Source: Thermodesulfobacteriota bacterium | GTDB lineage: Bacteria > Desulfobacterota_D > UBA1144 > Nemesobacterales > Nemesobacteraceae | DNA length: 64,000 nt | Assembly: GCA_965263275.1 (NCBI GenBank) | Contig: OZ253668.1 | Coordinates: forward strand, 705,220-769,219 | Direction: 5' to 3' | Shown here: positions 2,578 to 26,814 of the stretch, in pieces | Layout: the number at the start of each line of letters is the position of its first letter | Numbering within the stretch: position 1 is the first letter of the stretch | Translations under genes and position numbers: made by a program | Notes under the pieces: model-generated | Told to the model about the DNA's origin: nothing | Databases searched by the model: none | Seen by the model: only the letters and a program-made list of their open reading frames with translations

Positions 2578-3498
2578 CTAATTAACATTCTCAGTCATCT
2601 TTGGTTGCCAGTTTCTGCATACATATAGATTGCTACTTGGCTCATAGATATAACGCCAAAGCAGCTTTTCAATTCGATCAAGCCGATAAGACATAACGAA
2701 TTCGCCTAATGTCACTACACTCTCGGCAAACCGGTGTGGTATTGACGTATCACGTTGATTTGACGTTTCGCCGGGTCTAGCAAGGTCTGTAATACCATGA
2801 AATCCGGTAGCGATTGGAACAATCCAGCCAGTATGTGCACGCTCAGTATGTGCACGCTCGCTGGTCCAGCTTATATTGCCTTTGTCGTCGATTTCGCTAC
2901 GGTGTTTGATACTTACTCCATCTAGCAAGGCATCTAACGCATCCTGTCCATTACTCATTGCATCAACCATAAGGTCTCGGCGTTCGATCAAAGCATAGCC
3001 AGGCATTAAACGACGCAACAGTTTACGCTGTGACTTCTCATCATCGTCTGACTCCAAACGCGGTTCACTGAAGTCGATGAGATCTCCAGATGCAAACTTC
3101 ATCATCGGCAGGAGATTTTTCAGCGCACTGAACAGACCTCTTTCATCATCAAACTGACCAAATCCTTCAAGCTTCAGAACTAAAGACACTTCAAGATGAC
3201 AACGCGCTTCCTCAATAAATGCAGGGCGCTTACCTTCTTTATCTAATGGATTCCCTGTACTCACAATCGAACTATGAAAATCGGTTTTTCCTCTATAAGT
3301 CTGTAGATCTAGACAATGAGAAATTACGCCAACCGCTACAAATCGAAGTTCATCGTAATCTCTTTGATTTAAACGCCTTTGCAATGCATGTACCGCTCCT
3401 AACCAAGCTGTCATTGCCGGAAAGCCAACGGTAAACGGGCTGGATAACGCATTGGCATTCTGAATCTTAAGATGTGGTAACACTAAAAAGAGACTCAT
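2578..3498 (-). CDS. cas5f: Type I-F subunit Cas5f (Csy2)
   Basis: IQNANALSSPFTVGFPAMTAWLGAVHALQR, FIEEARCHL and PHRFAES motifs. Confidence 0.96.
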   Translation of the reverse strand: MSLFLVLPHLKIQNANALSSPFTVGFPAMTAWLGAVHALQRRLNQRDYDELRFVAVGVISHCLDLQTYRGKTDFHSSIVSTGNPLDKEGKRPAFIEEARCHLEVSLVLKLEGFGQFDDERGLFSALKNLLPMMKFASGDLIDFSEPRLESDDDEKSQRKLLRRLMPGYALIERRDLMVDAMSNGQDALDALLDGVSIKHRSEIDDKGNISWTSERAHTERAHTGWIVPIATGFHGITDLARPGETSNQRDTSIPHRFAESVVTLGEFVMSYRLDRIEKLLWRYIYEPSSNLYVCRNWQPKMTENVN

Positions 3499-4718
3499 AA
3501 CAACGCATCCTGCTTGGTAGAGATGATTTTATGAAAGTATTGTATTTCATCGTCGTGCATCCCCAGAGCTTTTTTACCTAAAACATCTTTGTATGCAGCT
3601 ATAATCCAGCGTGCGCTATCTTGCAGAAACCTGATAATGCTTTCAGAGCTTTCTTCCCTTATTATTGCATAGTAATTATCTAAAACCTGTTTTTGATAAT
3701 CAGGTAGATGATTGAATCGTTCACGTTCTGTCCAACCGGAACCCTGATTACGAATCTGCCAGATTTTTTCTACTATACGATCAAAGACATCTAAAATGAT
3801 ACTGTCTCGACCTTGGCGTATTGCCAAGTTATTAACATCGGCTATCAGTAATTTATGCAACCTGGTAAAATCATCTCTAAAATTCTTTGACCAGAGACAT
3901 TCTCTAAAAAAGCTCCTTTGTGGCAGTCTAATCTTCTGATCCTGCAAGCTTGGAGGCAAGCTTGGTAAGAGATAAGCCTTGCCACCAAATTGGTTATTTA
4001 AGCCGCTAATATTTTGTGGTTTTGTACCCCCATAGCCAATCATGCTAAGTCCCAAAACATCATTAAAACCTGTTTCGCTGTGCTCGTTTCTTTTGCGCAG
4101 TTCCCGTGCCGTCTTAGTTGCATCATCAAAACGCATTTTTTCGATACGACTACGCATCTCGAATACAAGCCCAGAGGGTGTCAGTATAGAAAGCTGATGG
4201 TAGCCTTCATCACGAACTGGAAAATAGACCTGCTTTATTTTTGAGCTGGTCAATTGACTGTCTTCACTGTTTTTGATCGCCAAAAATCCATCTCTTAATG
4301 ATTCGTATGTGGCGGTTTCAAGACTTAACAGAGACTTGCTCAGTTCCGTTTCCTGCTCAATGTGATCAAGCAAGGTCTGTCCGTCTTCCATTTTAAGGGA
4401 GACAAACTTATAGACATCAAGTGCTGCAGCATTGCCAAGAGAGTCCAGTTCTACCTGTGTGTTACCACTTCTGCAATAGCCATCCGCAGCCCGTTTGGCT
4501 GTTGCGATAACTGAGGTGGTTTTACCATTTTTGTTCTTACGGCCACTTGGATGACTAAATGTGCAAGGATGACTGGACAGGCACATTTGTCCGGCTCGTC
4601 TTGCCGCGTCCGGAAGCCAGTTTTCCAAAGCAAATTTCTTTTTTACTTTTTCCGGGGTTTTTCTCTTTAACTCTCTTTCCCTGCGTTCTAAAAAGAACTG
4701 CTTAATTGCTGGATCCAA
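3495..4718 (-). CDS. cas8f: Type I-F large subunit Cas8f (Csy1)
   Basis: WLPDAARRAGQ, GNAAALDVYKF, KQVYFPV and GGTKPQNIS motifs. Confidence 0.96.
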   Translation of the reverse strand: MDPAIKQFFLERRERELKRKTPEKVKKKFALENWLPDAARRAGQMCLSSHPCTFSHPSGRKNKNGKTTSVIATAKRAADGYCRSGNTQVELDSLGNAAALDVYKFVSLKMEDGQTLLDHIEQETELSKSLLSLETATYESLRDGFLAIKNSEDSQLTSSKIKQVYFPVRDEGYHQLSILTPSGLVFEMRSRIEKMRFDDATKTARELRKRNEHSETGFNDVLGLSMIGYGGTKPQNISGLNNQFGGKAYLLPSLPPSLQDQKIRLPQRSFFRECLWSKNFRDDFTRLHKLLIADVNNLAIRQGRDSIILDVFDRIVEKIWQIRNQGSGWTERERFNHLPDYQKQVLDNYYAIIREESSESIIRFLQDSARWIIAAYKDVLGKKALGMHDDEIQYFHKIISTKQDALL

Positions 4719-4751
4719 CTGTATCCTACCTGTCGTGGAGTTTTGGTTGGT

Positions 4752-4780
4752 ACAATATCTGGTTGTCTTACTGAAGTCAA
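4752..4780 (-). promoter_or_regulatory. Predicted sigma70 promoter for cas8f-5f-7f-6f
   Basis: Minus strand TTGACT (4780-4775), 17-nt spacer, TATTGT (4757-4752), about 35 bp upstream of the cas8f start. Confidence 0.6.
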
Positions 4781-4850
4781 ACTACTATATGTTCACAACT
4801 CAAAGTATTTTTATGACAAATTGTTTCCCTAAATCTTCCATATTGTGGAG

Positions 4851-4935
4851 TATAATTCTTTCATCATTCAATAAGTTGCTTATAAAATTATATGTTCATT
4901 AATTTTTTCACTGCCGAGGAGGCATGTATTGTAAA
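4851..4935 (+). ncRNA. Candidate crRNA-like regulatory RNA (degenerate single-spacer mini-CRISPR)
   Basis: TATAAT at 4851; handle-like CTTATAAA 4879-4886; 19-nt spacer; repeat-like TTTCACTGCCGAGGAGGCA 4906-4924. Confidence 0.4.
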
Positions 4936-4947
4936 TATACGAATTTT

Positions 4948-7900
4948 TTATTTTCTGACCAACCCAAACTGCGGTGAATAAAAATAGTTGTCATTATCGT
5001 TATAATGGGCTAAGCAAAGTTCACCGTAACGCAACCCTGCATCTTCTATTTTTAAGTTTTGTTCTTGGGCAATATAGGTTAGCAACTTAGCATAATCTCG
5101 ATATAGCCAGAGTCGTTTTTGACTATCATCCCACTTCCTATGCTCTATCCCCATTTCTATTTCAATTTTAACAGGGCACCCAGTAGCGTCTTTTTGGCAG
5201 AAAACATAATCAGCTCGGTCAGGATTGTCGTTATCGGGAACCAGATAGATGTTTTTACCAGGTAATGTGTCCCGAAAACGGTAAAGACGCTGCGGAATAC
5301 CCGTTAACCACCAATATTGTGTTAACCATCCCTCCAAATTTCCTGCACCTCGATTATCAGGCGTATTTAACGCGTTCTTAATCGCTACATGTTCCAAATC
5401 CACCAGATTCTTTTTGGGAGTTAACTTTTTATTAGGCTGGATACGGGGAATAGCATCAACTGAATGGTTCAAATCTTCTTCGCAAACAATCTGTTTCAGA
5501 TCATGACTAATCAAACGATCATCATATGTTTCATATCCTGGACGGTAGAAAACCGGTTTGTTATCTCTTTTGTCAGAATACTTTTGTATATACCCCTTTA
5601 AATTGTATTGCATCAACATAATATTCGGTTCAACCGGAGACTTGTTTCTGTGCCGCAACACACGCCCGGCCAACTGAATAATTGACCGATAGGATGACGG
5701 CTCCACCACGGCCCAGTCAAAATCATGATCACGTCCAACTTCCTCTACTGGTGTAGCCACCAATATATAAATCACGTTTTTTGCGGAACGCTCTGAGAGA
5801 TGTTTTTTTATGATGAGATTCTCAAATGCTGCTTGTGGATTTTTTCGCTTTAACACCACATCCAAATGTTTTTCCTGTTCATTCCGCATTAAAAGCACTT
5901 GCTGGCTGTGATATGCCATCACTTTTACATTTACATCATCTCGCCATTCCGCTTCTTCTAACAAATATCTGGCCAGATTCACACACGGCTTGATGTTGGC
6001 CACTCGAACAACACCGAAGGAAACTTGGACGGTGCTGATTTCATCTACTATGAAATGTTTCTCATGCATCTGTTCAATATACTGTTTAACAGATTCGAAA
6101 TATTGTTTTTCAAGTGTTTTCACATCGTTTTCATGTGGCACTTCCAACACAGAAATCACAGCTTTTCTCTTGACTTTCTCTTCTCTCAGCTTTCTGACAC
6201 GCTGTTGGACAAACTGATCATGTAGACAAGAGAAACCGCAATGTTCACCAGATTTATATGAAATAGTTGAGACATTTGTCCTGAATTCATCCACCCAAGC
6301 ACATCCGACGTTTTGGCTAATCCCCCGGCTCGTTGCGAACAGCAACCAGCCTTGTCGATAAGCATGGAATAGTCCCTTAGCTAGATCAGGTGGAATTGTT
6401 GCCGATGAAATCATGGCTTTGCGTCCAAGCAGACCGACAAGATGTATCAGACGACCAATTGCTTTCAGGTCGTTCACATCAAAATCATCAATTTCATCAA
6501 TCACCAGATCTGAGGACATCAGTCTAAGACTCGGTAATATATGACGTCCACCACGAGTAGTCTCTGTTGCCATGATTATGTGATCAATCGTGCACGCTAA
6601 TACTGGTGCATATAAAAAGTGGCGGTCTTTACTTTTTCTGAGAATTGTTTTAAGGTATTTTTCTGGAATATTCTGGGTGTCGTAGTAAATATCTTCCCTT
6701 GAGAACTCTTCCTTTAATAGCTCTTCTGTGGATTCAGAACCGCTTTTTTCTGCTTCAGATTGCTCGTATTTCGTTTCTTGACCTTGATTATGCAGATCCA
6801 GAACTGCCTTTGATCCAATCAAAACAGCTAAATCGTTATCAGTTAGACCTAAGCGGTTCTTATATTCGTCACCTGTTTGCAAAGTAAGCGTACGTAAACC
6901 CAAAGCTAATATATAGCGTAATTTACTGCAATCACTAGATAAAGCATGCATTATTTTGGCATTTGCGAAAGTCTTTCCCTTTCCTGTACTAGCCATATTG
7001 ACAGCAAAAAAACCGAACTGATCCTCGGGTTCGGTATGATTGTTTTCTTTGCGCCATTGATTAATTTGCCTGACCGCTTTATCCTGCCATTCAAAAGACC
7101 TAGGGCTTTTTATCTTCAGACTTTTTGTTTCTTTAGCAACGGGAAGCCCCGTTTCAAATAGAGGCAGACAATTTACTATGCTCAAAGCACTCTTTAGTAC
7201 TCCAACCAAGTGTTCATCCAATTTTTGTTTTAATTTTCCACTTTCTGTATTTGCAAATAACTTAACAACTGATTTCCAGTTACCGTCAGCACCTTGAGAA
7301 GAGTAACTATGATCTCCCAGCATTAGTGAGAGTCGAGAATAAAACAAAACAACTCGCATTCCCCCATTATCCATAATATCAGCTAAAAGATCTTGCTGCT
7401 TTAGCGCCTTGCTTGCCCACTTCTTCACTTCTCTTATCCAAGGAATTGAATTACTCAAGAATCCATTTGCAAATGCCAGACAATCTTTTATATCGATTTC
7501 TGACTCGGGATTTTTATAGTCAAAATCGGCCTTCAGGGCCTTCAGTAACTGCTGATACTCCGGCAAAGGATCCTTGTACCTATGCAAGTTCTCCTTAGGT
7601 GGTAATGGCAAACGATGATGAGTCAAAACTAACCAAGCGACTATTGTTGCAAGTGGAGGAAGTTTATAGAGTGGTGCTGCTCCCTCCGCACTGCCCTTCA
7701 AAGCATTTTTTAACATATTTTCATCAATATTGCCTTTACTTAACGCATCAAGCCAATCTATATCGCTTGACTCAGCAGACCTGCAACAGTGTTGTACGAA
7801 GGCATGCAATAACAAGCAGGAAATCCATTCATGCCGCAGAGGGTCAGCTTGAAAATTGGTCTTTTTTAACTTTTCCTGAAAACAAATCGTTGCTTTTCCC

Positions 7901-8274
7901 AAATCATGAAACAAAGCAGCCAAGGCTGTCGCAACTCGAACAAGAGGCAAATAATGCCAGTTGTTTTGCCATTGATTGTTTGCAATATTTTTGGTTGTAG
8001 TATGCACAGGCACAACACCCGCATGGTTAAACTCATCCCTTTTACCCACTACCCAAAGCAATTCCGAGCGTGAACGGTCGCGTATCCAGTGGCAGCTGAC
8101 TGCAGTATTTTTACTTGCGGTTTTGCGAAGCAACTTCCTGACAGCATTCAACCCCTCTTGAGTAATAACAGTTTGCCAAGTGTTGTTACCAATGCGGCTG
8201 GCAAAGGCGTCCAATACACGCCTAGTGCGTTTTAATGCTTTCTTTTCGCACTGCGATACAAATGTCACCATCAT
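4948..8274 (-). CDS. cas3f: Type I-F Cas2-Cas3 fusion helicase/nuclease
   Basis: N-terminal MMVTFVSQCEKKALKRTRRVLD (Cas2), LFHDLGK HD motif, ASTGKGKT, DEID and VEEVGRDHDFDW. Start placed at the ATGA overlap with the cas1 stop. Confidence 0.97.
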   Translation of the reverse strand: MMVTFVSQCEKKALKRTRRVLDAFASRIGNNTWQTVITQEGLNAVRKLLRKTASKNTAVSCHWIRDRSRSELLWVVGKRDEFNHAGVVPVHTTTKNIANNQWQNNWHYLPLVRVATALAALFHDLGKATICFQEKLKKTNFQADPLRHEWISCLLLHAFVQHCCRSAESSDIDWLDALSKGNIDENMLKNALKGSAEGAAPLYKLPPLATIVAWLVLTHHRLPLPPKENLHRYKDPLPEYQQLLKALKADFDYKNPESEIDIKDCLAFANGFLSNSIPWIREVKKWASKALKQQDLLADIMDNGGMRVVLFYSRLSLMLGDHSYSSQGADGNWKSVVKLFANTESGKLKQKLDEHLVGVLKSALSIVNCLPLFETGLPVAKETKSLKIKSPRSFEWQDKAVRQINQWRKENNHTEPEDQFGFFAVNMASTGKGKTFANAKIMHALSSDCSKLRYILALGLRTLTLQTGDEYKNRLGLTDNDLAVLIGSKAVLDLHNQGQETKYEQSEAEKSGSESTEELLKEEFSREDIYYDTQNIPEKYLKTILRKSKDRHFLYAPVLACTIDHIIMATETTRGGRHILPSLRLMSSDLVIDEIDDFDVNDLKAIGRLIHLVGLLGRKAMISSATIPPDLAKGLFHAYRQGWLLFATSRGISQNVGCAWVDEFRTNVSTISYKSGEHCGFSCLHDQFVQQRVRKLREEKVKRKAVISVLEVPHENDVKTLEKQYFESVKQYIEQMHEKHFIVDEISTVQVSFGVVRVANIKPCVNLARYLLEEAEWRDDVNVKVMAYHSQQVLLMRNEQEKHLDVVLKRKNPQAAFENLIIKKHLSERSAKNVIYILVATPVEEVGRDHDFDWAVVEPSSYRSIIQLAGRVLRHRNKSPVEPNIMLMQYNLKGYIQKYSDKRDNKPVFYRPGYETYDDRLISHDLKQIVCEEDLNHSVDAIPRIQPNKKLTPKKNLVDLEHVAIKNALNTPDNRGAGNLEGWLTQYWWLTGIPQRLYRFRDTLPGKNIYLVPDNDNPDRADYVFCQKDATGCPVKIEIEMGIEHRKWDDSQKRLWLYRDYAKLLTYIAQEQNLKIEDAGLRYGELCLAHYNDNDNYFYSPQFGLVRK

Positions 8275-9227
8275 GTGACTGGCTCTCCACTGCACTGTAA
8301 GGCGGCTTGTTTGACATGGTCAAACATAAAATCCAAGGCTTTGTGGTTTGCGAAAGCTTGCAGACACTGCTGGCGAAATTCTTGTTCAGTGACGGTTTCT
8401 TTAGCACAGATAAATGCCCACGGCAGCACTAGAGCATCTTTGATTAAATCGGCCACATCAAACACAAGCGCACCGCGTCGGGTTTTACCGTGCATAACGG
8501 CTAAACCATGGGGGATGCCCAACACCCAAAGAGTGGTGGCAGCTAATCCGTATGCTAAATAGTTGCCGTGATTAAGGAAAGCATTAGCTTTATCCGTAGC
8601 TTCGCGCTGGCGCGTGAAATCGCCGTATTTAGTATTGGTGCTAGCAAATCTGTAGAGCCGTTTTGTGAGGTCAGCTTCGGTTTGCAGCAATTTACCAACT
8701 CCGGGAGCAACGGCAATTTGTTGACGGTAACGCTCCAGTGTGTGGATCAAATTGGCATCGTCACTATTGAAACCTTCTGTGTTTAAATCCCGGTCCTTGC
8801 TCCAAACATTCTGCAAGTAATCAATACGGGCTTGCTGGAATTGTTTGGCGGTTTGTAAACGGGCTTGTTTGTCAAACCAGAAACTGACCCAGCCCTGCAT
8901 ATATTCTGTTGGACGGTATTCGCTTTGCGGCGTCAGCCATTCAACTTCGCTACCCATTAACAACGGTGTACCACCTCCTCCACAAAATCCTACCAATACG
9001 CCAGCCTGAGCTAACATCCGTATCGCTGCCTGGGTAACAGAGGTTCCTGTGCCCAATAACAAGCAGGTCGTATTGGCGATTGGAATATTCCAGTATTGGT
9101 TCTCGTTTTTTGCGTCAGTCAGGTAAAGTACGCGTCCGTTTTTTTGCATGACGCGACACTTTTCCAAGTAATAGATATTGGCACGCTTGGAGTGAAGAAT
9201 TGCCTTCAGGTCTGTTAGTTGTTCCAT
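8271..9227 (-). CDS. cas1: Type I-F Cas1 integrase
   Basis: LKAILHSKRANIYYLE, WNIPIANT and HGKTRRGALVFDVADLIKD motifs; GAGG RBS before ATG at 9227. Confidence 0.97.
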   Translation of the reverse strand: MEQLTDLKAILHSKRANIYYLEKCRVMQKNGRVLYLTDAKNENQYWNIPIANTTCLLLGTGTSVTQAAIRMLAQAGVLVGFCGGGGTPLLMGSEVEWLTPQSEYRPTEYMQGWVSFWFDKQARLQTAKQFQQARIDYLQNVWSKDRDLNTEGFNSDDANLIHTLERYRQQIAVAPGVGKLLQTEADLTKRLYRFASTNTKYGDFTRQREATDKANAFLNHGNYLAYGLAATTLWVLGIPHGLAVMHGKTRRGALVFDVADLIKDALVLPWAFICAKETVTEQEFRQQCLQAFANHKALDFMFDHVKQAALQCSGEPVT

Positions 9228-9312
9228 ATAGTAAACCTCATAATAGCTCTCCAGCATATTGTGTCAGACACTTAGGAAAAAATCTGAGAGAAATTTAAAT
9301 AATCTATTTTAA

Positions 9313-11017
9313 CCTGCATTTCTCACAAAGGGGTGTAAGAAGTAAATTTTTTGGGGTTGGATCTGGATTTTGGCTGAACTGACAGGGAGCGAGTTTCTTT
9401 TTCGGGTAGGCGGCAGCGATTTACAGGTTGTTTCCGTATGTTCTTACCTTGCGAAGCGATATCAGACGCAGATGTCCCCCTGCGGTCTCAGGCAAGCATA
9501 TCCGCAATCCCTTGTTCCCTATTGATTCAACGGAATCGCCCGCAGCCTGCTCAGCACATGCTTGAACAAGTCCGCGTACGGATAGAACTCCGAGAACGAC
9601 AGCACAATTCTCCTGGCGCTCATTGTTATCAGCGTACCAATCTTAAGCAGCTTCAGGCGTATGGTATCGCACTGCGCCATCGCGTAGCGGGTTCCCTTAA
9701 GCCCGCTGTGTCTCAAACGCTCAAGCAGCACGTAGGCAAAGGCGGAGAAGTACATCCTCAACTGGTTTGACCTCATGTAGTGAGTTGAGGTGCGGTCCGA
9801 GAACAACTCAAGCTGCTGAGACTTGATACGGTTCTCCATCTCCCCCCGAGCGCAGTAAACCTTCTCGTAAAGAGTCTTGGCGTCATATTCTTCGTGTTTG
9901 ACAGACGTTACTATGAACCGGGTGTTGGCCCCTTTCTCAAGATGCTCAGCCTTGCATACCACCCTGCGGCTTCGAGACCAGCTTTTCATGGTACTGTACA
10001 TAAAGCTTACAAACCGCCTCGATGGTCTCTTGGTTTCCACATACTCTATGTGAGCTCCGCGAACCTGCTTCTTAACCCTTTTCATCAACCGGGAGTTTCT
10101 TGCCATGCCCAACACGTAATCAACCCCGTTTTGCTCACACCACCTCATAAGCTCGTCCCGGCAGAAACCCGTGTCCCCTCGTATGATAATCCCAGTGTCT
10201 TTCCACTTCCCTCGAATCCCGGAGATAATCCTCTTCAGTTCTTCCTCTGCTCCCGCCGCAGAATCCTGGTTGGCTTCGCGGAGCCGGCACCCAAGCAGAT
10301 GGCGCCCGCAGAATATGTAAGAGGGGGTGTAGCAGTACCCCCCGTAATAACCGTGATAAAACCTGCCCTCCTGATTTCCGTGCAGGGGATCGTCCGTGAT
10401 GTCTATATCGATCACTATCTTCTTCGGCCTTTTTTTGTGGAACCTGATGAACATATCCACAAGCAGTTTGTCAATCGCCCCAAAGTCAGCCTCTATCTTC
10501 TTGTAGCGATCCGTCCCCCCGGTGGTAAGCTCCATGCGGTTTACCGTGCTCTTGCCCGCAAGGGGAGCAGAGGTACCGCAGAACATGGATGCTATGGGAT
10601 CCCCTCGGAACCTGTCATGGTCGTTCACGTCTTCGTAACCCAAGCAGATTGCCAGCACCCGCTGGGCCACTATGGAGAATACGGGGTGGGTGATGTAACT
10701 GGGGTTTCGATGATCAATGAAGCACTCGGCGAACCTCCTGATAACTCCAAAACGGTGTTCGGCTTCGCGAAGCAGGGCAATGCCGCCGTCGGAACTTACT
10801 TTGTCAGAGTCGAATTTAGCAATTACTTTGCGGGTTCTTTTAGAACCGGGGCTGTTTGTGGATGTTTCGAGAGTTTTGAAGGGTAGAAATTCGATTTGTT
10901 CCGTGTTACACTGTGTACTCATGAGGCCGTTGTTCTCCTGTGTTTTAAGTTACTGTAATAACTGTATTATAACACATACAACGGCCTCTTTCTATACCTC
11001 CTTGTGAGAAATCCGGG
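9313..11017 (-). mobile_element. IS1380-family insertion sequence, 1705 bp
   Basis: Imperfect terminal IRs CCTGCATTTCTCACAAAGGGG (9313) and CCCGGATTTCTCACAAGGAGG (reverse complement, ending 11017); TTAA on both flanks (9309-9312, 11018-11021). Confidence 0.9.
9519..10922 (-). CDS. IS1380-family DDE transposase
   Basis: SSDGG, GYEDVNDHD, DDPLHGNQEG, IRGDTGF and YCARGEMENRIK motifs. Confidence 0.95.
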   Translation of the reverse strand: MSTQCNTEQIEFLPFKTLETSTNSPGSKRTRKVIAKFDSDKVSSDGGIALLREAEHRFGVIRRFAECFIDHRNPSYITHPVFSIVAQRVLAICLGYEDVNDHDRFRGDPIASMFCGTSAPLAGKSTVNRMELTTGGTDRYKKIEADFGAIDKLLVDMFIRFHKKRPKKIVIDIDITDDPLHGNQEGRFYHGYYGGYCYTPSYIFCGRHLLGCRLREANQDSAAGAEEELKRIISGIRGKWKDTGIIIRGDTGFCRDELMRWCEQNGVDYVLGMARNSRLMKRVKKQVRGAHIEYVETKRPSRRFVSFMYSTMKSWSRSRRVVCKAEHLEKGANTRFIVTSVKHEEYDAKTLYEKVYCARGEMENRIKSQQLELFSDRTSTHYMRSNQLRMYFSAFAYVLLERLRHSGLKGTRYAMAQCDTIRLKLLKIGTLITMSARRIVLSFSEFYPYADLFKHVLSRLRAIPLNQ

Positions 11018-24479: not shown

Positions 24480-25487
24480 TCAAACTTCTATGCTCTGCGC
24501 AAGAGCCCTGTTAGCATTATACCACCTAAGCGAGTTTTCAATGCCCGTTTCGATATCAAAGCAAGGCTCCCAGTCCAAGACCCTCTTCGCCTTGTCTATG
24601 TTTGCCAGGGTAACCTTGATATCGGAAGGATGCGGAGGGCTGCAAGCGATCTTGGCCCTTTTGCCGGTTCTGCGTTCCATTACACCTATGATCTCGTTTA
24701 GGGAAACCGAGGTCGCGCTTCCGAGGTTTATTACCTCAAAGCCGAGATTCCTTATCGCCAGAACCGTCCCCGCGGCGATATCGTCAACGTAGGTAAAATC
24801 TCTTTTCTGCTCCCCGTCGCCGAGTATTTCTATCTCCTGTCCTTCGTCTATCCACTTTATGAACCGAAAAACGCTCATATCGGGTCTTCCAGCAGGACCG
24901 TAAACGGTAAAGTAGCGAAGCACCGAGATGTCTATTCCGTAAAGGGAGTTGTAAACCGAGCAAAGACCCTCGGCGGATTTTTTTGAAGATGCGTAGGGAG
25001 AAAGCTGGTAGTCGGTCTTCATATCCTCGCTGAAAGGAATATCGTTCCCCCCGTAAACACTCGAAGTTGAAGCGAGCACAAATTTGCCTATCCCCTCGGA
25101 GCGACAGAATTCAAGGAGATTAAGAGTCCCCGTCACGTTGGTAGAGTAATATATCCAAGGGTTCTCAATGCTCTGGCGAACACCTGCCCGAGCCGCCAGA
25201 TTAATTACGCAGTCAATTCGGCCACCCTCGCAAAAACCCTTTATTTCTTCACACACAGAAAGAAGCCTGGCGTTATCCGATATATCACACCCGAAAAAAT
25301 TGAACCCCTCCCGCTCGAAAAGAGTTTCTAGCCTGTGGTGTTTGAGTCTCACGTCGTAAGCATCCGACATGTTATCGAGGCCGAAAACACAATCCCCGCG
25401 CTCAAGCAGAAACTCGCATACCCTGGCGCCTATAAATCCCGCGCAACCCGAAACGATTATATGGAAATTATATACTTGTTTACCCAT
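24480..25487 (-). CDS. NAD-dependent epimerase (UDP-glucuronate 4-epimerase-like) with element-derived N-terminus
   Basis: SGCAGFIG, LAARAGVR, YASSKK and RYFTVYGPAGRPDM. Native start MNII is stranded at 26783-26772; a replacement ATG lies at 25487. Confidence 0.85.
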   Translation of the reverse strand: MGKQVYNFHIIVSGCAGFIGARVCEFLLERGDCVFGLDNMSDAYDVRLKHHRLETLFEREGFNFFGCDISDNARLLSVCEEIKGFCEGGRIDCVINLAARAGVRQSIENPWIYYSTNVTGTLNLLEFCRSEGIGKFVLASTSSVYGGNDIPFSEDMKTDYQLSPYASSKKSAEGLCSVYNSLYGIDISVLRYFTVYGPAGRPDMSVFRFIKWIDEGQEIEILGDGEQKRDFTYVDDIAAGTVLAIRNLGFEVINLGSATSVSLNEIIGVMERRTGKRAKIACSPPHPSDIKVTLANIDKAKRVLDWEPCFDIETGIENSLRWYNANRALAQSIEV

Positions 25488-26771
25488 TGGGTAGCCTCGC
25501 ATCAATTTCACGGTTCATCGGGACTGTACTAATACCAGAAACCTCCCCGTGCAGTCGCGCCATTCCCAGACGCCTTATGTTCATTGCCGCATTCGTGTCC
25601 GCATTGGACGCAAAGCCGCAACTCACACATAGGAACCGTGCTTGGGTTTTACGGTTCTCTTTATCCACATGCCCGCATTCGGAGCATGTCTGACTTGTGT
25701 ACGCGGGATTTACTTCTATGAGCCTCCCGCACTTGTACTCAAGATTCCTTCTAAGTCCCCCTATGGCGGTATCCTGTATTGCCCTGTTAAGTCCCGCCTT
25801 CTTCTTCACGTTCTTTCCGGGATTCTCTATCGTACCCTTTGCAGAGGCCGTCATGTTCATGACCTTTAAGTCCTCCACTATCACGGTCCCACATTTCTCG
25901 GCAATCTCCTTTGTGGTCTGATGAATCCAGTTCTTGCGGATATTGGGTATCTTTCTGCTCACCTTCGCAAGTTTCTTCTCCGTGTCCTTCCGCCTGTTAG
26001 ACCCCTTGACCTGCCTTGCCATCCTTCGCTGATATCTCTTCCGCCTTGCTTCTTTCTTCTTTAGATCGGGCAGGAAGTAGAAATGTCCATCCGAGGTGGC
26101 AACCTGGCGGACGTTCATGTCAACACCTAAGAACTCACCATTGTCCAATCTCTGTTCCCCTTCGACCTCATAGAAGACAAAGGCACGCCATCTGTGCCCG
26201 TCATGGCGAAGCACAACCTGCTTGGGTGCGCCGTCCTCGTAAGGATTGCCACCCCTGCGGGTGAGCCTCACCCAACCTACCAAGGGAATGCGAAGCAGAG
26301 AGTATTTTCTATCAATATTCTTTATTCTGAAGTTCTCTTTGCTGGGGAGTGTGAAACTAGGGGCAGTCCTTCTCCTGCTTCTAGGCTTCGGAAAACCCTT
26401 TTTGCCCTGCATTGCCTGCTTCAGAGCGTCTGCGAAATACTTGAGAGTATGTTTAATAGGATTGGCGGGAAGCTCCCCAGGCCAGTCCGTCTCATGCCTT
26501 AGCCTGGTGAATTCCACCCCGAGACTGAAATAACTGGCAGATGGCCTCTCTCCCTCGCCGCCCCTGGATTTCTGGTAGTCGGCAAGGTTCTTCTCCCTGA
26601 AATGGTTCCAGACATACCGACAAGCTCCCGCTATCTGGAACATCTTCTTTGCCTTAGCCTTAGCGGTAGGAAGAACGACAAACTCTACAGTACGTATTTC
26701 TTTAGTCATTACGGTATATAATACCCCACTTGCTAGTAATTATGCCTTGGGTAATCAAGTATATAAGTTCC
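25463..26771 (-). mobile_element. Non-autonomous TIR element (IS1595-like ends) carrying only tnpB, 1309 bp
   Basis: TIRs GGAAATTATATACTTGTTTACCCA (25463-25486) and GGAACTTATATACTTGATTACCCA (reverse complement of 26748-26771), 22/24 identical; GATTATAT duplicated at 25455-25462 and 26772-26779. Confidence 0.92.
25480..26709 (-). CDS. tnpB: TnpB RNA-guided endonuclease
   Basis: GACRYVWN, RuvC-I GVDMN, RuvC-II IVEDL, Zn finger CSECG...CVSCG and RuvC-III NADTNAA. Confidence 0.96.
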   Translation of the reverse strand: MTKEIRTVEFVVLPTAKAKAKKMFQIAGACRYVWNHFREKNLADYQKSRGGEGERPSASYFSLGVEFTRLRHETDWPGELPANPIKHTLKYFADALKQAMQGKKGFPKPRSRRRTAPSFTLPSKENFRIKNIDRKYSLLRIPLVGWVRLTRRGGNPYEDGAPKQVVLRHDGHRWRAFVFYEVEGEQRLDNGEFLGVDMNVRQVATSDGHFYFLPDLKKKEARRKRYQRRMARQVKGSNRRKDTEKKLAKVSRKIPNIRKNWIHQTTKEIAEKCGTVIVEDLKVMNMTASAKGTIENPGKNVKKKAGLNRAIQDTAIGGLRRNLEYKCGRLIEVNPAYTSQTCSECGHVDKENRKTQARFLCVSCGFASNADTNAAMNIRRLGMARLHGEVSGISTVPMNREIDARLPNG

Positions 26772-26814
26772 GATTATATTCATGATAGCGAGGACTGCTC
26801 CCAGTCCATTTCCA

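Follow-up and report, generated by a model that had tools for sequence, protein, structure and literature searches.

A tnpB cassette with IS1595-type ends and 8 bp target-site duplications in a Thermodesulfobacteriota genus, very probably mobilised in trans

Structure of the tnpB unit

The stretch of DNA analysed here, referred to as the window, is 64,000 nt of contig OZ253668.1 (positions 705,220 to 769,219, forward strand; assembly GCA_965263275.1) from a Thermodesulfobacteriota bacterium of the order Nemesobacterales. Within it, the gene for the RNA-guided nuclease TnpB fills a 1309 bp unit (25463-26771), which is bounded by a 24 nt inverted repeat complementary at 22 of 24 positions (92%) and which interrupts an epimerase gene. 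The features of the unit and of the interrupted gene are as follows.

24480-25487, minus strand: remainder of the epimerase gene (open reading frame (ORF) 24480-25511; Pfam Epimerase)
25455-25462, no strand: copy of the target-site duplication (TSD) beside the right end, GATTATAT, which reads ATATAATC in the orientation of tnpB
25463-25486, minus strand: right-end terminal inverted repeat (TIR), on the 3' side of tnpB, holding the tnpB stop codon
25463-25511, minus strand: predicted terminal hairpin between the conserved GTGAAATTGATRCG and the outer end repeat GTATATAATTYC, with covariation in the inner stem
25463-25712, minus strand: conserved omegaRNA-like zone overlapping the 3' end of tnpB, with near-invariant synonymous sites
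25480-26709, minus strand: tnpB, 409 aa, intact, the sole long ORF of the unit
26748-26771, minus strand: left-end TIR, on the 5' side of tnpB
26772-26779, no strand: copy of the TSD beside the left end, an exact 8 bp GATTATAT
26780-26783, minus strand: ATGA, the epimerase start codon plus A, directly 5' of the duplication, where a transposon-associated motif (TAM) would lie

The ends are specific to the unit, a 16 nt end pattern having two matches in the window, both at the unit ends, against 0.06 expected by shuffling. The tnpB stop codon (25480-25482) is inside one end repeat, and 38 nt separate the start codon (26709) from the other. Pfam matches to the TnpB protein are OrfB_IS605 (8e-20), Cas12f1-like TNB (3e-18) and, weakly, HTH, and the protein carries the domain pair PF01385 and PF07282. 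Residues 7-383 align with ISDra2 TnpB (8bf8; E 4.8e-27), with GVDMN, VEDLK, and NADTNAA opposite GVDVG, GTEHLK, and DRDENAA and with both CxxC pairs retained. The three aligned motifs are presumably the catalytic D/E/D positions of TnpB, and the protein has both the RuvC-like domain with D, E, and D and the Zn finger. No transposase-like ORF was found among the other ORFs of at least 100 aa in the unit, nor is an ORF for a DDE_Tnp_IS1595 transposase with its Zn ribbon present there by the ORF list and Pfam. The unit should therefore be seen as a non-autonomous derivative, rather than as an insertion sequence (IS) in its own right. A scan for σ70 promoters gave 0 sites against 1.7 expected, therefore no promoter is claimed; conceivably, tnpB might have a leaderless start downstream of a TATAAT-like box.

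The insertion splits an NAD-dependent epimerase gene (Pfam 8.5e-55) immediately after ATGA. In 11 out of 11 relatives whose loci were read, the gene is intact and the site is empty, with a single copy of GATTATAT followed directly by TCATG. The nearest of these relatives has 99% flank identity, which indicates that the insertion is recent. In the interrupted gene, the epimerase frame is open back to an ATG at 25487-25485 that overlaps the tnpB stop codon (ATG at -25, stop at -20). Translation from this ATG could yield a protein in which MGKQVYNFH precedes residue 3 and the rest of the original epimerase.

A previous model reading of the same DNA, made without database searches and called here the sequence-only reading, had described the 1309 bp unit, its 24 bp inverted repeats matching at 22 of 24 positions, the exact 8 bp duplication, the three RuvC acidic residues and Zn finger of TnpB, the stop codon inside one TIR with the start codon 38 bp from the other, and the lack of an encoded transposase. 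The coordinates, the alignment with 8bf8, the ORF list, and Pfam all agree with that description. The same reading held that removal of the unit with one copy of the duplication restores the gene and proposed a search for the empty allele, which is the allele carried by the 11 relatives.

A family of tnpB cassettes

The genus was sampled through 36 genomes, those being the window's genome and 35 others. Insertions were catalogued from fetched loci, and cassette ends and duplications were delimited automatically. Two copies of tnpB, 100% and 91% identical, are found in the window's own genome with different 8 bp duplications, the 91% copy having an 8 bp deletion in one end. A third copy was not found in this genome by tblastn, and no TnpA was found adjoining either of the two. 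Near-full-length copies of this tnpB, here called type 1, are present in 22 of the 35 other genomes at 73-89% protein identity, a count that leaves out four further matches, which are weak or fragmentary. A second tnpB, type 2, is only 28% identical to type 1 over 241 residues and is present in 23 out of 36 genomes, the window's genome being without it.

There are 51 distinct type 1 insertions, in which the flanking 8-mers agree at 8 of 8 positions in 19 cases, at 7 in 8, at 6 in 7, and at 5 or fewer in 17. The corresponding numbers for the 36 distinct type 2 insertions are 17, 5, 3, and 11. Beyond the duplication in the window there are thus 36 further exact cases, in addition to the empty site. 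The sequence-only reading had called for a search for more tnpB copies with the same ends and different 8 bp duplications, and these copies fit its expectation. The anatomy of the unit is constant across copies that are 75-100% identical in DNA. In genome G025 (L044 and L108), an IS4-like (DDE_Tnp_1) gene has displaced the 3' part of a type 1 cassette of 2798 bp, whose outer duplication AAAGCAAC is intact. As a separate observation, one and the same 8-mer duplication, AAACGGAT, is present at two apparently unrelated sites (L091 and L148), one for each tnpB type.

The tnpB gene is intact in 49 out of 51 type 1 and 28 out of 29 type 2 copies, and median dN/dS is 0.125 for type 1 and 0.152 for type 2. 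These ratios indicate that tnpB is under purifying selection. Further tnpB types, 38-42% identical and up to 494 aa long, are present in G045, a genome from another family of the order, where they have the same kind of ends and 8 bp duplications. For the copy in genome G052 (49% identical), the end motif was not seen within 400 nt.

In a tree of 25 rows, type 1 groups with the G052 sequence and one G045 type. Type 2 falls with the remaining two G045 types, on the same side of the tree as the IS605/IS607-type sequences. A single clade of all TnpBs bound by end repeats is rejected by the approximately unbiased (AU) test (p 0.0156), in which the tested group was named after the free tree had been seen, the tree itself being limited to 25 rows, with few outgroups on long branches. 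This suggests at least two captures of tnpB. The sequence-only reading had asked whether TIR-flanked TnpBs form a clade; they fall instead into two groups.

Transposase-bearing elements with the same ends

Matches to PF12762, the IS1595 DDE domain, are present in 28 out of 36 genomes of the genus. In the sister genomes 14 transposase-bearing elements were delimited, ranging from 1.3 to 6.5 kb and most with passenger genes. IS1595 subgroups with passenger genes (ISNwi1+, ISPna2+) were reportedly described by Siguier in 2009. Exact 8 bp duplications flank 12 of 13 elements as delimited; the thirteenth, L043, has one after a boundary shift of 1 nt, and the duplication of the fourteenth, L207, is exact. 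All 14 contain a PF12762 match from the genome searches. Of the five transposases that were run against Pfam, all match both PF12762 and PF12760, the DDE domain and the Zn ribbon.

The ends of these elements are common to the tnpB cassettes. One end of L207 (G034, 5555 bp) is identical at 25 of 26 positions to the left end of the type 1 cassette in G034 and at 22 of 26 to the right end in the window, and an end of L201 is identical at 24 of 26 to the cassettes L118 and L013. For type 2, L042 and the inner element of L200 have the first 23 of 26 positions the same as type 2 cassettes, in one case within the same genome, and other type 2 cassettes have the end classes of L204/L205, L066, and L203. 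The sequence-only reading had proposed a search for an autonomous IS1595-type transposase sharing the TIR, and elements with matching end repeats do exist.

It is very probable, on the strength of these end comparisons, that the unit in the window belongs to the IS1595 family as a non-autonomous cassette and that separately encoded IS1595 transposases move it in trans. Because tnpB and the transposase sit in separate elements with the same ends, mobilisation in trans is the best reading, and the shared ends lend support to the earlier proposal of a tnpB carried by a bacterial DDE transposon and moved in this way. The cassette is made up of two IS1595-type TIRs, a single cargo gene, the intact tnpB, and a conserved RNA-like zone overlapping the 3' end of tnpB. 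Transposases with a Zn ribbon and DDE_Tnp_IS1595, encoded on the separate same-end elements, would presumably be the mobilisers, acting in trans and generating the 8 bp duplications. The 3' zone would give rise to an omegaRNA with the end repeat as its last stem and with a guide taken from the duplication and the flank, and TnpB would then cut empty sites.

Several observations weigh against this interpretation. No tnpB is present in any of the 14 transposase-bearing elements and no IS1595 transposase in any of the 87 cassettes, and because the two are never in one element the link between cassettes and IS1595 rests on the shared ends. Among the elements of the window's own genome, L004 (duplication GGTGTTTT) comes closest in its end and has an in-frame TAA in its transposase, and the ends of the sole intact PF12762 gene of that genome (L003, G000 214-215 kb) were not found. 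Four genomes (G005, G014, G015, and G024; 92-95% complete) have cassettes and no PF12762 match. The 17 out of 51 type 1 and 11 out of 36 type 2 insertions that agree at no more than 5 of the 8 duplicated bases also fit poorly, for which recombination between copies, decay, or the automatic delimitation may be the cause. Finally, Rfam gave no match to the 3' zone, only a sub-threshold snoRNA.

Other features of these elements and of their ends were recorded. DNA methylases occur as passengers in three IS1595 elements: an N6_N4 methylase fused to HNH (L201, 3706-7152), a D12 methylase together with a 297 aa ORF (L043, 364-3659), and a DNA methylase (L086, 779-2973). In L200, one IS1595 element (3206-7066) is nested in another (3047-9530), each with its own exact 8 bp duplication. 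An IS256-type (Transposase_mut) gene is located at 4335-5750 of L207, inside the IS1595 element that matches the ends of the window's subfamily. With 2 mismatches at most, the 15-mer GGGAATTATATACTT is found in all 36 genomes, at 5-46 occurrences in each versus 0-7 for a reversed control. Some of its copies bound units of 275 bp (L045) and 256 bp (L048), the size of miniature inverted-repeat transposable elements (MITEs), and others bound cargo other than tnpB (L046, and L047 with a 361 aa ORF and the duplication GATGAACC). A conserved palindrome of about 49 bp, made of two 15-mers that resemble the end repeat, is found at G007:C4:21304-21352, with equivalents in G010, G025, and G002. Upstream of a tiny ORF outside the window, at G000:C1:420485-420606, there are two directly oriented solo sequences that resemble the end repeat, with a spacing of about 95 bp.

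The 3' zone and its terminal hairpin

The last 250 nt of the cassettes are near-invariant at many third codon positions. For type 1, dS is 0.55 in the last 80 codons versus 1.26 in the first 300, and for type 2 it is 0.71 versus 1.44, dN being equal; the 3' end of the gene is thus under a further constraint. RNAalifold predicts 44 pairs in this zone, of which 7 have compensatory changes. The final ~50 nt fold as a hairpin in 29 out of 29 copies, with the conserved GAAATTGATRCG paired to the outer end repeat. Hairpin cells are paired in 85.7% of cases versus 18-46% with slid partners, and 4 pairs are changed on both sides; the scored structure was derived from single folds of the same sequences, which favours the hairpin. 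On the 54-column end alignment RNAalifold returned 4 pairs only.

In these folds the 3' arm of the conserved hairpin, predicted within the omegaRNA-like zone, is formed by the end repeat. Conservation, the compensatory pairs, the terminal hairpin, and the low dS all support the zone as a candidate omegaRNA, in which the end repeat would be part of the last stem and the guide would correspond to the duplication and the flank. Contigs from two metatranscriptome libraries (X19 and X20) include pieces 90-99% like tnpB, although contigs cannot show transcription, ends or level. Other contigs of these libraries extend past the right end into different flanks, and one is an empty-site contig of a relative. 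An empty-site contig is likewise present in the DNA run X15.

Sequence flanking the insertions

For the flank statistics orthologous sites were merged, leaving 26 type 1 and 19 type 2 sites, each read in the orientation of tnpB. Negative positions are in the flank preceding the duplication.

Duplication position 1: A in 26 of 26 type 1 sites; A in 16 of 19 type 2 sites
Flank position -1: purine in 26 of 26 type 1 sites; G in 19 of 19 type 2 sites
Flank position -2: G in 16 of 26 type 1 sites; T in 14 of 19 type 2 sites
Flank position -3: A or T in 22 of 26 type 1 sites; A in 13 of 19 type 2 sites
Flank position -4: A in 17 of 26 type 1 sites; not scored for type 2

C is never found at -4 to -1 of type 1 sites. 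A mirror motif on the other side was not seen among the 26 type 1 sites, of which 10 have T at duplication position 8 and 13 have a pyrimidine at +1. With a slash for the edge of the duplication, the flanks thus appear to carry an orientation-specific motif, AWGR/A for type 1 and ATG/A for type 2, at the position equivalent to a TAM. In the donor-joint geometry of IS605, if the guide reads the duplication and right flank, the TAM must lie exactly where this flank motif is found.

The motif could be due instead to the target preference of the transposase, which together with the survival of harmless insertions would account for both the flanks and the start-codon positions described below, TnpB being uninvolved. 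This explanation has not far short of an even chance of being correct. For a transposase-only IS in G026 (about 13 copies), all of the 11 left flanks have a purine at -1 and 9 of the 11 have A at duplication positions 3-4, which speaks against attributing the motif to TnpB. The ATG of type 2 lies in an end class common to transposase-bearing elements, and by the author's estimate the ATGA sites at which an insertion is tolerated may be mostly intergenic or start-codon sites. Against this, of 13 diverse transposase-bearing elements 6 have A at position 1, 7 a purine at -1, and 4 G at -1, versus 26/26, 26/26, and 19/19 for the same features in the cassettes (Fisher p 1e-4 to 3e-5). The lack of a mirror motif and the location of the motif exactly where a TAM must be also speak against target preference. 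In G045 no common flank motif was seen at three insertions with clear duplications, which are too few.

Insertions behind start codons

A cassette immediately follows the start codon of a host ORF in the same orientation at 10 out of 26 type 1 sites, one of them uncertain where the locus ends, and at 7 out of 19 type 2 sites. By the same criteria, only 7.5-9.4% of the ATGA or ATGAA sites in the window's genome would qualify. For 16 of the 17 cassettes the host frame reaches back into the right end and comes upon an ATG whose position is fixed, for type 1 at -25 or -24, overlapping the tnpB stop codon, and for type 2 at -15, inside the repeat. The seventeenth site has kept its own ATG in the duplicated 8-mer. 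The type 1 subfamily with the ATG at -24 is found at ATG/A or TTG/A sites and the -25 subfamily at ATGA/A sites, so that the offset of the ATG matches the class of site and the reading frame fits in both subfamilies. Two host genes have been struck by both tnpB types within 0-1 nt of the same place (L017 and L179; L134 and L143).

A tentative joint reading, less likely than not, would bring these observations together as three adaptations that fit a DDE transposon with TSDs to the homing logic of TnpB. The end repeat, to which the transposase must bind, would double as the last omegaRNA stem. Insertions would persist where the duplicated 8-mer is preceded by the motif (AWGR before A in type 1, ATG before A in type 2), and the empty site would then read as TAM plus guide target. 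Since the motif contains ATG and the right end has an in-frame ATG, the cassette could dock directly behind a host start codon. Survival of harmless insertions could be the source of much of the start-codon pattern, and an adaptive role is for this reason considered possible rather than probable. If the joint reading is true, the cassette uses the expression signals of its host and the host protein is still made with few extra residues. Should the start-codon insertions with their replacement ATG be functional, a mobile element would have an uncommon means of residing within genes without harm.

Other explanations for the cassettes

Mobilisation of the cassettes by another DDE family that makes 8 bp duplications, recognising similar ends by chance, is highly improbable. 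An IS256-type transposase is present in L207 and an IS4-like one in L044, and four cassette-bearing genomes are without PF12762 matches, yet the IS256-type and IS4-like genes look like nested insertions, and it is PF12762 that is found in 14 out of 14 delimited same-end elements, with both DDE and Zn-ribbon domains in the 5 out of 5 run against Pfam.

It is very improbable that the unit is an ordinary tnpB element of the IS200/IS605 or IS607 type, moved by a Y1 or serine TnpA, with repeats that are a by-product of palindromic hairpins. Each cassette end is itself part of a hairpin, as such an origin would have it. Distant homologues in other phyla (L109, L115) adjoin Y1 TnpA-like ORFs (by eye, with HUH-like N-termini), and canonical IS607-type elements are present in the genus (L087 in G006 and L089 in G012), in which a serine-recombinase ORF with a MerR-like HTH is followed by a TnpB 30% identical to that of the window. 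These IS607-type elements have no inverted repeats and look different from the unit in the window, which has both TIR and TSD. Exact 8 bp duplications of unrelated sequence at 36 insertions (19 of type 1 and 17 of type 2), the single copy of the 8-mer at the empty site, and the presence of the same ends around IS1595 transposase genes all argue against an ordinary element. No Y1 TnpA turned up, no family-model search of the genomes having been made.

A one-off accident, in which a tnpB element landed in a MITE and was then copied, is scarcely credible even though MITE-sized units with the same ends exist (L045, L048), given that tnpB fills the unit with its stop codon in the end repeat, that this repeat is the 3' arm of the conserved predicted hairpin, that the anatomy is kept across copies of 75-100% DNA identity and recurs both in the second lineage of tnpB and, outside this family, in G045 of the same order, and that nested IS605 or IS607 ends were not seen in the unit.

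Comparison with known systems

The benefit of TnpB to IS605 and IS607 elements is explained by scarless excision, which leaves an empty site for the nuclease to re-cut. A recent review gives this logic of scarless excision and re-cutting as the reason why DDE partners are rare in prokaryotes, and in its passages on such associations, which it calls rare, names ISL2, IS630, and IS1031 as TnpB partners (PMC13565253, 2026). Six DDE-associated branches of TnpB (DDE-1 to DDE-6), all with inverted terminal repeats, have been described, with solo TnpBs that have near-identical ends read as trans-mobilised (Altae-Tran et al. 2023, PMC10691335). The capture of TnpB by DDE transposons is therefore already known as a kind, and the sequence-only reading, which named no earlier description, is to be corrected in this respect. 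What does appear to stand is the novelty of the IS1595 partner and of the strictly trans arrangement. IS1595 is not named in the main text of PMC10691335, the supplements of which may name an IS1595-type partner, nor in the passages of PMC13565253. A full-text literature search pairing the names TnpB and IS1595, judged from its listings, found no such association in print. Also apparently new are the place of the end repeat in a predicted hairpin, the asymmetry of the flank motif, and docking at start codons.

In these bacteria with small genomes, two tnpB lineages under purifying selection live only as hitch-hikers on IS1595 ends. They offer a natural system in which to study the role of TnpB in a cut-and-paste element, the way in which a guide RNA deals with a target that has been duplicated, and whether a transposon end can serve both a transposase and an RNA.

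The cassettes resemble the branches of Altae-Tran et al. (PMC10691335) in having TnpB inside inverted-repeat transposons, in the trans-mobilised solos, and in the 3' end of tnpB being near the transposon end. They differ from those branches, for which the main text names only IS630, in that tnpB and the transposase are never in one element (0/14 and 0/87) and in that at least two tnpB lineages use the same family of ends. A resemblance is also seen with Fanzor and Fanzor2*, TnpB-type nucleases in elements with TIR and TSD, some of which are non-autonomous (Yoon et al. 2023, PMC10711439). The TIR and TSD of Fanzor elements are predicted in that paper to be part of the guide-RNA scaffold. Unlike Fanzor, the present case is bacterial, with a TnpB of the typical length of ~400 aa and a guide RNA that is putative.

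The IS1341 group, the tnpB-only members of IS200/IS605, is similar to the unit in the window in size, ~1.3 kb, and in having tnpB as its sole gene, yet it belongs to a family stated to have no TIRs and no TSDs (PMC13565253), whereas the unit has both. Members of the IS1595 family are described as 'usually flanked by 8-bp TSDs', as the sequence-only reading had stated, and as encoding Zn_Tnp_IS1595 with DDE_Tnp_IS1595, their Merlin relatives having ends in GG (PMC8101967). The cassettes share with this family the 8 bp duplications, ends starting in GG, and partner transposases of two domains, several of these partners having passenger genes; the unit in the window differs from it in encoding no transposase.

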